Positions 33,262 through 35,891 of a stretch of 64,000 bases of DNA are shown here, piece after piece. The notes under the pieces are model-generated. The model did not search any database, was not told the DNA's origin, and worked only from the letters and a program-made list of their open reading frames with translations. The first letter of the stretch is position 1. Every line of letters begins with the position of its first letter. The DNA comes from Escherichia coli (GTDB lineage Bacteria > Pseudomonadota > Gammaproteobacteria > Enterobacterales > Enterobacteriaceae), in the NCBI RefSeq assembly GCF_044324785.1, contig NZ_CP172127.1; one strand, given 5' to 3'. Position numbers and translations under genes: made by a program.

Positions 33262-33477
33262 GAGACCCGGCGGGGGAGAAATCCCTCGCCACCTCTGATG
33301 TGGCAGGCATCCTCAACGCACCCGCACTTAACCCGCTTCGGCGGGTTTTTGTTTTTATTTTCAACGCGTTTGAAGTTCTGGACGGTGCCGGAATAGAATC
33401 AAAAATACTTAAGTAGCGCGCAGGGATAAGAGGGATGGTCCCTTAAAGGGGAGAGCTAATTATCCGGAAGGATTCTG

Positions 33478-33729
33478 ATGATGAACATCGAAGAACTGCG
33501 TAAAATTTTTTGTGAAGATGGCCTCTATGCTGTGTGCGTTGAAAATGGAAATCTTGTTAGTCATTACCGCATTATGTGTTTGCGAAAGAATGGGGCTGCG
33601 TTAATTAATTTTGTGGATGCTCGGGTCACGGACGGATTTATCTTGCGCGAAGGTGAGTTTGTCACTTCATTACAGGCATTGAAAGAGATCGGAATAAAAG
33701 CTGGCTTTTCTGCTTTTTCAGGAGAATAA
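33478..33729 (+). CDS. rem: Rem protein (function unknown)
   Basis: 83-aa ORF after relBE-hokD as in Qin. Confidence 0.7.
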   Translation: MMNIEELRKIFCEDGLYAVCVENGNLVSHYRIMCLRKNGAALINFVDARVTDGFILREGEFVTSLQALKEIGIKAGFSAFSGE

Positions 33730-33795
33730 ACTCATCTACAATCTTGCGCGGGGCTGAACTCCCGCTGAGTAACACCGTGCCACCGGAGAAAACCG

Positions 33796-34074
33796 ATGGC
33801 ACGCAACGCAAAATATTACAATTCTGATAATTCGCCCGTTCTTGCCTGCACGCACGGGCGGTATTCTCACGCATTCAAGTCTGAATGGTTCCAGCACCCT
33901 CCATGCACTGCAGAACAGGCCGAATGGCTGATTCATTCTTACCGCAGGCGCGGGTTCGAGGTTAAGAAAGCTCTCAGTCTCGACTATCGGCACTGGATAA
34001 TCTCTGTCAGGCTGCCTTATTCCGAACGCCCACCACGTGCGTCCCGCACTTTCCAGCAACGGATCTGGAGGTAA
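33796..34074 (+). CDS. hypothetical ORF, possibly the frameshifted 5-prime part of ydfU
   Basis: 92-aa ORF overlapping the next ORF start by 38 nt in another frame. Confidence 0.35.
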   Translation: MARNAKYYNSDNSPVLACTHGRYSHAFKSEWFQHPPCTAEQAEWLIHSYRRRGFEVKKALSLDYRHWIISVRLPYSERPPRASRTFQQRIWR

Positions 34075-35125
34075 CGTGCGGGTATTACTTAGACCTGTTC
34101 TGGTGCCTGAGCTTGGGCTGGTGGTCCTTAAGCCGGGCCGTGAATCCATACAGATATTTCATAATCCTCGAGTGCTGGTGGAACCGGAACCAAAAAGCAT
34201 GCGTAATCTGCCATCCGGAGTCGTTCCTGCCGTTCGCCAGCCGCTGGCGGAAGACAAAACATTGCTGCCGTTTTTTAGTAACGAACGGGTGATTCGTGCT
34301 GCTGGCGGCGTTGGCGCATTGTCCGACTGGCTATTACGTCATGTTACATCCTGCCAGTGGCCTAATGGCGATTACCATCACACTGAAACAGTCATTCACC
34401 GTTATGGTACCGGCGCAATGGTGTTGTGCTGGCACTGCGACAACCAACTGCGTGACCAGACATCGGAATCACTGGAGCTGCTTGCTCAACAAAATCTGAC
34501 AGCATGGGTGATTGACGTCATCCGTCACGCAATAAGCGGTACGCAGGAGCGGGAATTATCTTTGGCTGAATTATCCTGGTGGGCGGTCTGCAATCAGGTG
34601 GTGGATGCACTACCTGAGGCTGTATCGCGTCGTTCGCTGGGATTACCAGCGGAAAAAATCTGCTCGGTGTACCGCGAAAGCGACATCGTACCGGGAGAGC
34701 AGACCGCCACCAGCATATTGAAACAACGCACAAAAAATCTTGCACCGTTGCCTTACGCCCACCAGCAACAAAAATCACCACAGGAAAAGACGGTGGTAAG
34801 CATCACCGTTGATCCAGAGTCTCCGGAATCTTTCATGAAGCTGCCTAAACGTCGCCGCTGGGTTAAGGAGAAATACACACGTTGGGTTAAGACACAGCCG
34901 TGTGCTTGCTGCGGTATGCCAGCCGACGATCCGCATCATCTGATTGGTCACGGGCAGGGCGGAATGGGAACAAAAGCACATGATCTCTTTGTGTTGCCTT
35001 TGTGCAGAAAGCATCACAACGAGCTGCATACGGATACAGTGGCATTTGAAGATAAGTATGGCTCCCAACTGGAGCTGATATTTCGTTTTATCGATCGCGC
35101 GCTGGCAATTGGCGTACTGGCGTAA
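34037..35125 (+). CDS. ydfU: DUF968/HNH-like phage protein YdfU
   Basis: 362 aa with C-terminal Cys/His cluster (CACCGMPADDPHHL...CRKHHNELH). Confidence 0.65.
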   Translation: MRPALSSNGSGGNVRVLLRPVLVPELGLVVLKPGRESIQIFHNPRVLVEPEPKSMRNLPSGVVPAVRQPLAEDKTLLPFFSNERVIRAAGGVGALSDWLLRHVTSCQWPNGDYHHTETVIHRYGTGAMVLCWHCDNQLRDQTSESLELLAQQNLTAWVIDVIRHAISGTQERELSLAELSWWAVCNQVVDALPEAVSRRSLGLPAEKICSVYRESDIVPGEQTATSILKQRTKNLAPLPYAHQQQKSPQEKTVVSITVDPESPESFMKLPKRRRWVKEKYTRWVKTQPCACCGMPADDPHHLIGHGQGGMGTKAHDLFVLPLCRKHHNELHTDTVAFEDKYGSQLELIFRFIDRALAIGVLA

Positions 35126-35138
35126 GTGGAGAACGAGC

Positions 35139-35891
35139 ATGAACCTTGAAGCCTTACCAAAATATTACTCCCCAAAATCTCCAAAATTGAGCGATGACGC
35201 TCCAGCGACAGGCACCGGTTGTTTAACAATTACGGATGTAATGGCAGCGCAGGGGATGGTGCAGTCGAAAGCACCACTTGGGTTGGCCTTATTTCTGGCA
35301 AAAGTTGGTGTTCAGGACCCCCAGTTTGCGATTGAAGGCCTGCTAAATTACGCGATGGCACTGGATAACCCGACATTGAACAAATTGAGTGAAGAAATCC
35401 GGTTACAGATTATTCCTTACCTCGTGAGTTTTGCCTTTGCTGATTACTCCAGGTCTGCGGCAAGTAAGGCTCGCTGTGAGCATTGTTCAGGTACGGGATT
35501 TTATAATGTATTGCGCGAAGTGGTGAAACACTACAGACGCGGGGAATCTGTAATCAAGGAAGAATGGGTGAAGGAACTATGTCAGCATTGCCATGGTAAG
35601 GGCGAAGCCAGCACAGCGTGCAGAGGGTGTAAGGGTAAAGGGATTGTTCTGGATGAAAAAAGAACCCGGTTTCATGGCGTACCGGTATATAAGATTTGTG
35701 GGCGTTGTAATGGAAACCGGTTTAGTCGTTTACCGACCACGCTGGCACGACGTCATGTCCAGAAGCTGGTACCAGACCTGACCGATTATCAGTGGTATAA
35801 GGGGTATGCGGACGTCATTGGTAAACTGGTAACAAAGTGCTGGCAGGAAGAAGCATACGCGGAAGCGCAATTGAGGAAGGTGACAAGATAA
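35139..35891 (+). CDS. quuQ: late-gene antiterminator Q-like protein
   Basis: About 250 aa with zinc-binding Cys clusters (CEHCSGTG, CQHCHGKG, CRGCKGKG, CGRCNG) upstream of the lysis genes. Confidence 0.8.
   Translation: MNLEALPKYYSPKSPKLSDDAPATGTGCLTITDVMAAQGMVQSKAPLGLALFLAKVGVQDPQFAIEGLLNYAMALDNPTLNKLSEEIRLQIIPYLVSFAFADYSRSAASKARCEHCSGTGFYNVLREVVKHYRRGESVIKEEWVKELCQHCHGKGEASTACRGCKGKGIVLDEKRTRFHGVPVYKICGRCNGNRFSRLPTTLARRHVQKLVPDLTDYQWYKGYADVIGKLVTKCWQEEAYAEAQLRKVTR

Follow-up and report, generated by a model that had tools for sequence, protein, structure and literature searches.

The 92-codon open reading frame in front of ydfU (here ORF1) and ydfU itself are very probably two separate genes of one rightward operon in the nin region of the Escherichia coli prophage Qin, the overlap between them deriving from a fortuitous, lineage-specific GTG codon. 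The stretch of DNA analysed (the window) comprises 64,000 nucleotides of contig NZ_CP172127.1, and its initial annotation had raised the possibility of a frameshift at the 5' end of ydfU. Judging from the comparison of homologous sequences, the supposed frameshift is an artefact of ORF calling laid over an ordinary operon architecture, and ORF1 is, on the same grounds, a real and conserved small prophage gene. Annotation by PGAP and a catalogue entry in PHROGs already exist for this arrangement.

The window contains the nin region (relBE, hokD, rem, ORF1, ydfU, ydfT) of Qin, a cryptic prophage of K-12. Its plus strand corresponds to the minus strand of MG1655, and MG1655 positions are obtained by subtracting the window position from 1678380. 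The genes around ORF1 are, in this order, relB, relE, hokD, rem (33478-33729), ORF1, ydfU, ydfT/quuQ (35139-35891), cspF and cspB. A terminator-like hairpin with a T-run is found just 3' of hokD (33330-33356), and a promoter-like site (TTGAAG-18-TAGAAT, 33370-33399) is located between this hairpin and rem; both are matches to a consensus. In the curated MG1655 RefSeq record nothing is annotated in the 346-nt gap between rem and ydfU (window 33730-34075; MG1655 1644305-1644650). In other K-12 genomes PGAP describes ORF1 as the hypothetical protein WP_012304870.1, and it calls the gene in thousands of E. coli genomes; in K-12-type, O157-type and CFT073 genomes the hypothetical protein is followed by a ydfU of 349 aa. 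The features of the locus are listed in the table.

Table. Features of the ORF1-ydfU locus, in window positions.
Feature	Position	Strand	Basis
Spurious antisense ORF over ORF1, 137 aa	33736..34149	-	stops in homologues; pN/pS
Shine-Dalgarno-like GGAGA, 6 nt 5' of the ORF1 ATG	33785..33789	+	read from sequence
ORF1, small prophage protein gene, 92 aa, ATG start, TAA stop (34072-34074)	33796..34074	+	ORF list, annotation, pN/pS, phrog_1212
Variable N-terminal extension of ORF1, codons 1-26	33796..33873	+	predicted disordered; absent from 66-68-aa homologues
Conserved core of ORF1, codons 27-92	33874..34071	+	pN/pS 0.124; phrog_1212; AF2
GTG opening the mechanical 362-aa ORF	34037..34039	+	no conserved start codon
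Mechanical 362-aa ORF, GTG start	34037..35125	+	longest open frame only
Predicted RNA hairpin, ydfU Shine-Dalgarno and GTG paired with ORF1 codons 83-87	34043..34082	+	MFE fold
Shine-Dalgarno GGAGGT for ydfU (GGAGG = 34067-34071)	34067..34072	+	last two ORF1 codons TGG AGG (Trp-Arg) and first base of the stop
ydfU, 349 aa, GTG start (34076-34078)	34076..35125	+	annotation; phrog_96; mEp460 gp49 alignment; pN/pS
DUF968 region, YdfU residues 160-346, His-Me-finger (HNH-like) core	34553..35113	+	Pfam; CxxC...HH...CxxHH

The initial annotation was based on two open reading frames, of 92 and 362 aa, and the ORF list confirms that these share 38 nt (34037-34074) in differing frames, the second being in the +1 frame relative to the first (33796 mod 3 = 1, 34037 mod 3 = 2). 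Both the overlap and the length of 362 aa arise because a mechanical ORF opens at the first ATG, GTG or TTG after a stop codon. The length itself does not hold, since RefSeq (PGAP) and the MG1655 record both give 349 aa for ydfU, from 34076 to 35125. Of 36 distinct homologous sequences, 12 have GTG at 34037 and the remaining 24 have GTC or GCC there. When read in the ydfU frame, the segment 34001-34075 shows a pN/pS of 1.5, against 0.11 for 34000-34074 in the ORF1 frame; for codons 1-24 of ydfU the value is 0.30. As the GTG at 34037 is not conserved and no coding selection is seen in the ydfU frame upstream of the annotated start, the 13-residue extension is not part of YdfU.

The junction between the two genes reads ...ATC TGG AGG TAA C GTG CGG..., with the ORF1 stop and the ydfU start 1 nt apart. 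It was followed through 84 loci taken from E. coli chromosomes, isolated phages and IMG/VR contigs, in which the identity to the window ranges from 76 to 100% for ORF1 and from 71 to 100% for YdfU. All 84 loci have the same layout, a 279-nt ORF followed after 1 nt by ydfU, down to the lowest amino acid identities (76% for ORF1, 71% for YdfU), and YdfU aligns in every one of them from residue 1, which is located 5 nt past the last ORF1 sense codon. The string TGGAGG TAA C GTG is unchanged in 83 of the 84, the single exception having AGGAGG. The 84 loci include those of the inducible phages PhiR42_1, HannyBb, Tritos and PPompW, and the locus is present at a coverage of at least 80% in 3,512 of 5,426 complete E. 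coli genomes. The initial proposal named a split gene and a small overlapping gene as alternatives. The small gene is retained, while the split is not, and neither is the overlap, ORF1 abutting on ydfU.

The identities of the two proteins are uncoupled between loci (98.9% for ORF1 and 82.5% for YdfU in locus L030, 92.4% and 98.9% in locus L038), which indicates recombination between two modules. There is also a mosaic breakpoint inside ydfU, at about 34808-34826 (residues ~245-250). Many phages and prophages, including mEp460 and SfV (orf45), match only the last ~320 nt of ydfU, which correspond to the His-Me finger core, with 87% identity; in other loci ORF1 and the first two thirds of ydfU are common and the C-terminus is different.

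ORF1 is open in all 30 distinct homologous DNA sequences, with a pN/pS of 0.236 when read in the ORF1 frame and of about 1.5 in either shifted frame, and its variable columns number 24, 28 and 56 at the first, second and third codon position. Codons 1-26 are not under purifying selection (pN/pS 1.07) and carry indels which give proteins of 90 or 92 aa. The AF2 model has a pLDDT below 50 for residues 1-21 and above 90 for the core, which is predicted to consist of a beta-alpha-beta-beta fold and, after it, a basic C-terminal tail or helix (PRxSRTFQQRIWR). In the alignment distant homologues begin at residue 27, and residues 27-92 correspond to positions 1-66 of the 66 positions of the PHROGs profile phrog_1212 (E 1.7e-35). 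ORF1 matched no Pfam family in a scan that admitted E values up to 1, and searches of PDB sequences with YdfU and with the ORF1 profile gave no significant match. Codons 1-26 always stay open behind a conserved ATG, despite a pN/pS of about 1 and the indels. The Shine-Dalgarno-like site of ORF1 is GGAGA or GGAGG in K-12-type upstream sequences and AGAGA in a second upstream variant; the finding of two quite different upstream sequences abutting on the ORF1 ATG suggests a recombination junction at the start codon.

Two other proposals for this stretch were discarded. In 27 of 36 distinct homologous sequences the antisense ORF is interrupted by one to three stops, and its pN/pS is 1.42. For the label "toxin to Rem", given to an ORF1 homologue of phage vB_EcoS-689R5 (L006, 2518-2796) and in related records, no supporting evidence was found.

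Among the alternatives to two protein-coding genes, the one which fares best, very unlikely as it is, regards ORF1 as an untranslated leader, such as a Rho-loading or regulatory RNA region, which is open by chance. It agrees with the lack of an ORF1 annotation in MG1655 and with data on transcription termination, since the terminator upstream of ydfU was listed among the strongest Rho-dependent terminators in E. coli (PMC9160355) and in Rho mutants ydfU is de-repressed (log2 about 1.4-2.8) while rem is not (PMC9160355 supplement). The increase of ydfU but not of rem places the action of Rho in or near the ORF1 stretch (~33730-34100). Such a leader is however contradicted by the strong frame-specific purifying selection on ORF1 and by protein homologues which extend down to 30-40% identity in phages of Salmonella, Klebsiella, Yersinia, Edwardsiella and Erwinia; the confident AF2 fold of the core also speaks against it. 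With ORF1 taken as a gene, the Rho-dependent terminator suggests that the stretch is poorly translated in the silent, uninduced prophage.

YdfU matches the family DUF968 (PF06147) over profile positions 1-171 of 171, with a Pfam E of 1.4e-76 and 256.8 bits against a cut-off of 27.8, and weak matches to HNHc_6 and RecA_dep_nuc are found at residues 268-328. The protein has a His-Me finger (HNH-like) motif flanked by zinc-binding Cys pairs (CACCG...DDPHHL...H...CRKHHNELH). The protein was assigned to His-Me finger group 7 together with YbcO (PDB 3g27) by Jablonska et al. 2017 (PMC5714182), and a role in recombination or repair, similar to that of NinG/Rap, has been proposed for it (PMC5714182). 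Positions 1-334 of the profile phrog_96 align to residues 1-349 of YdfU. The N-terminal 135-160 residues are outside DUF968 (residues 1-159, 34076-34550), have their own PHROG (phrog_11007) and carry a Cys/His cluster, CQWP...HH...CWHC, resembling a metal-binding site. The comparison with an intact lambdoid phage also speaks against a frameshift: gp49 of mEp460 (329 aa, 57% identity) aligns with YdfU end to end, over residues 1-349 and thus from the same first residue, and the gene 5' of gp49 encodes a KilA-N-type regulator and not an ORF1 homologue.

Searches with ORF1 gave 129 matches with the single sequence, 507 with a profile against a set of 5.8 billion proteins and 110 representative clusters with an exhaustive HMM search. 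Nearly all homologues are proteins of 50-145 aa without a Pfam domain. The few longer ones which match ORF1 well are one-off chimeras or have an N-terminal extension in which no domain is recognised. In these three large protein searches no conserved fusion of ORF1 with YdfU or another nuclease was found. Sporadic chimeras combine the small protein with replication protein O, baseplate J, YbcO, the YdfU C-terminus or an alternative frame of ydfT. In P0186 a frameshift joins it to YbcO, and in P0097 and P0049 deletions join it to the YdfU C-terminus and to the alternative ydfT frame, respectively; P0203 and P0221 are two further one-off chimeric ORFs which carry part of the small protein. The long forms probably arose by deletion or frameshift in decaying prophages, or are truncated fragments or assembly artefacts. 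Weak matches in several stretches, near E = 1e-4, to three long proteins (341-939 aa) look spurious.

ORF1 belongs to phrog_1212, as its core gives a full-length match to the profile and the family consists of a stand-alone small protein of temperate enterobacterial phages and prophages. Homologues of 66-68 aa, with 30-48% identity, are found in Gifsy-1, Gifsy-2, mEp237, SPN3UB, PY54, phiES15 and in phages of Klebsiella, Edwardsiella, Hafnia and Erwinia, and the hosts of phages carrying an ORF1 homologue include Escherichia, Salmonella, Klebsiella, Cronobacter, Yersinia, Edwardsiella, Hafnia and Erwinia. The small gene is typically located in the nin region 3' of a gene of the NinB, DUF1367 or YbcN type. 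In 10 of about 16 sampled subfamilies it is directly upstream of a gene for a His-Me-finger nuclease, with a gap or overlap of at most 4 nt. In the Qin type the nuclease is YdfU/DUF968. It is YbcO/DUF1364 in mEp237, phiES15, one Klebsiella phage and prophages of E. coli and Cronobacter, and NinG in Gifsy-2, GF-2 and a Logan contig; in another pair a NinG-like protein, phrog_5034, takes this place. NinG is separated from the small gene by one to three genes (in one case several) in four cases, and no nuclease follows the small gene in PY54, PhiR46_1 and one weak match.

In the direct pairs the small gene ends in the conserved W-[G/R] and a stop codon (TGG GGG TGA or TGG AGG TAA) at 0-2 nt before the next start, so that its last codons constitute the Shine-Dalgarno sequence of the following gene; this design is seen at the junctions of loci L008, L009, L011, L092, L100, L106 and L109. 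Qin and GF-2 have a frame offset of +1 between the two genes, the other direct pairs one of +2. The junction design of the small protein across the family fits translational coupling and argues against a conserved frameshift mechanism. From these associations we infer a possible functional partnership of the small protein with the nuclease. The phrog_1212 protein could in that case serve the nin-region His-Me-finger nucleases as a dedicated and translationally coupled partner, acting as an inhibitor, a chaperone or a DNA-targeting subunit, a proposal which we make only tentatively and regard as rather unlikely. The association may instead reflect a merely conserved order of nin genes, since the NinB/DUF1367 gene also often precedes the small gene.

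The frame relation in the family bears also on a second alternative, by which ribosomes would undergo a programmed +1 frameshift at the ORF1 stop (AGG UAA C), in the manner of prfB, and produce a fusion besides the two separate products. The frameshifting of prfB depends on a slippery P-site codon and on a stimulatory Shine-Dalgarno sequence 3 nt upstream. The ORF1-ydfU junction resembles prfB in its +1 offset at a stop codon and in the nearby SD-like element, GGAGG; the stop follows the rare codon AGG, and the junction is invariant. It is unlike prfB in having neither a slippery P-site codon nor the SD-like element at the right spacing of 3 nt, nor a frame relation conserved in the family. 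A tRNA-Arg paired with AGG has no way to re-pair with GGU, and the SD-like GGAGG extends over the P-site codon itself; the related pairs with YbcO or NinG have an offset of +2 or a 4-nt overlap. An ordinary initiation site fully accounts for the GGAGG and the GTG after it, and we know of no ORF1-YdfU fusion products. We consider programmed frameshifting at this site to be exceedingly unlikely.

That ydfU is a frameshift-split pseudogene, with ORF1 as the detached N-terminus of an ancestral DUF968 protein of ~440 aa, is hardly conceivable: the two ORFs do lie next to each other on one strand, in different frames, and Qin is a decaying cryptic prophage with other damaged genes, but both parts are not found in one continuous frame in any intact relative among the 84 loci and more than 600 homologues, the two-gene layout persists in inducible phages, no conserved fused homologue emerged from the searches, complete YdfU homologues with no ORF1 in front of them begin at the same residue, ORF1 homologues are found 5' of unrelated nuclease families, and no coding selection acts in the ydfU frame upstream of 34076. 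The frameshift suspected at the 5' end of ydfU is therefore refuted, the homologues being two separately conserved proteins.

Given two adjacent genes, ORF1 and ydfU are probably translationally coupled. We infer this from the layout, in which the stop and start are within a few nucleotides and the downstream Shine-Dalgarno sequence is inside the upstream ORF. The spacing between this sequence and the GTG of ydfU is short (3-4 nt). Ribosomes ending on ORF1 would be delivered to the weak GTG start of ydfU, or would unmask it. A predicted hairpin sequestering the Shine-Dalgarno sequence is suggestive of the coupling and was not accepted as evidence for it: it is present in the MFE fold, with -21.1 kcal/mol in a 66-nt context, but it is not significant against shuffled sequences (z = -1.67; 13 of 200 shuffles fold as well), and it is inconsistent across the other subfamilies.

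The significance of these results is small. A false pseudogene or frameshift flag is removed from ydfU, and the rem-ydfU interval which appears as "intergenic" in MG1655 is seen to hold a conserved 92-codon gene, a small gap in the annotation which is worth closing. That the small protein recurs beside His-Me-finger nucleases of three or four families is a modest lead for work on YdfU, YbcO and NinG, poorly understood nucleases of lambdoid phages.

As to known systems, the ydfU of the window is the K-12 gene itself and does not differ from the known DUF968 protein, and the 13 extra residues of the 362-aa ORF are outside the family. With the other members of phrog_1212 (PHROGs v4), such as Gifsy-2 STM1021.1n, mEp237 gp51, phiES15 gp17 and PY54 ORF47, ORF1 has in common the whole 66-position profile, the place in the nin region and the C-terminal W-[G/R]-stop which doubles as the next Shine-Dalgarno sequence. 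The Qin or E. coli type differs from them in an extra, fast-evolving N-terminus of 24-26 residues, which is predicted to be disordered, and in being paired with the large YdfU nuclease, whereas the others are paired with YbcO or NinG. Like coupled gene pairs of phages and bacteria, the ORF1-ydfU pair shows a 1-nt gap, a GGAGG in the last codons of the upstream gene, a weak GTG start and a predicted hairpin over the Shine-Dalgarno sequence and the start; unlike them, its hairpin is statistically indistinguishable from that of shuffled sequence.
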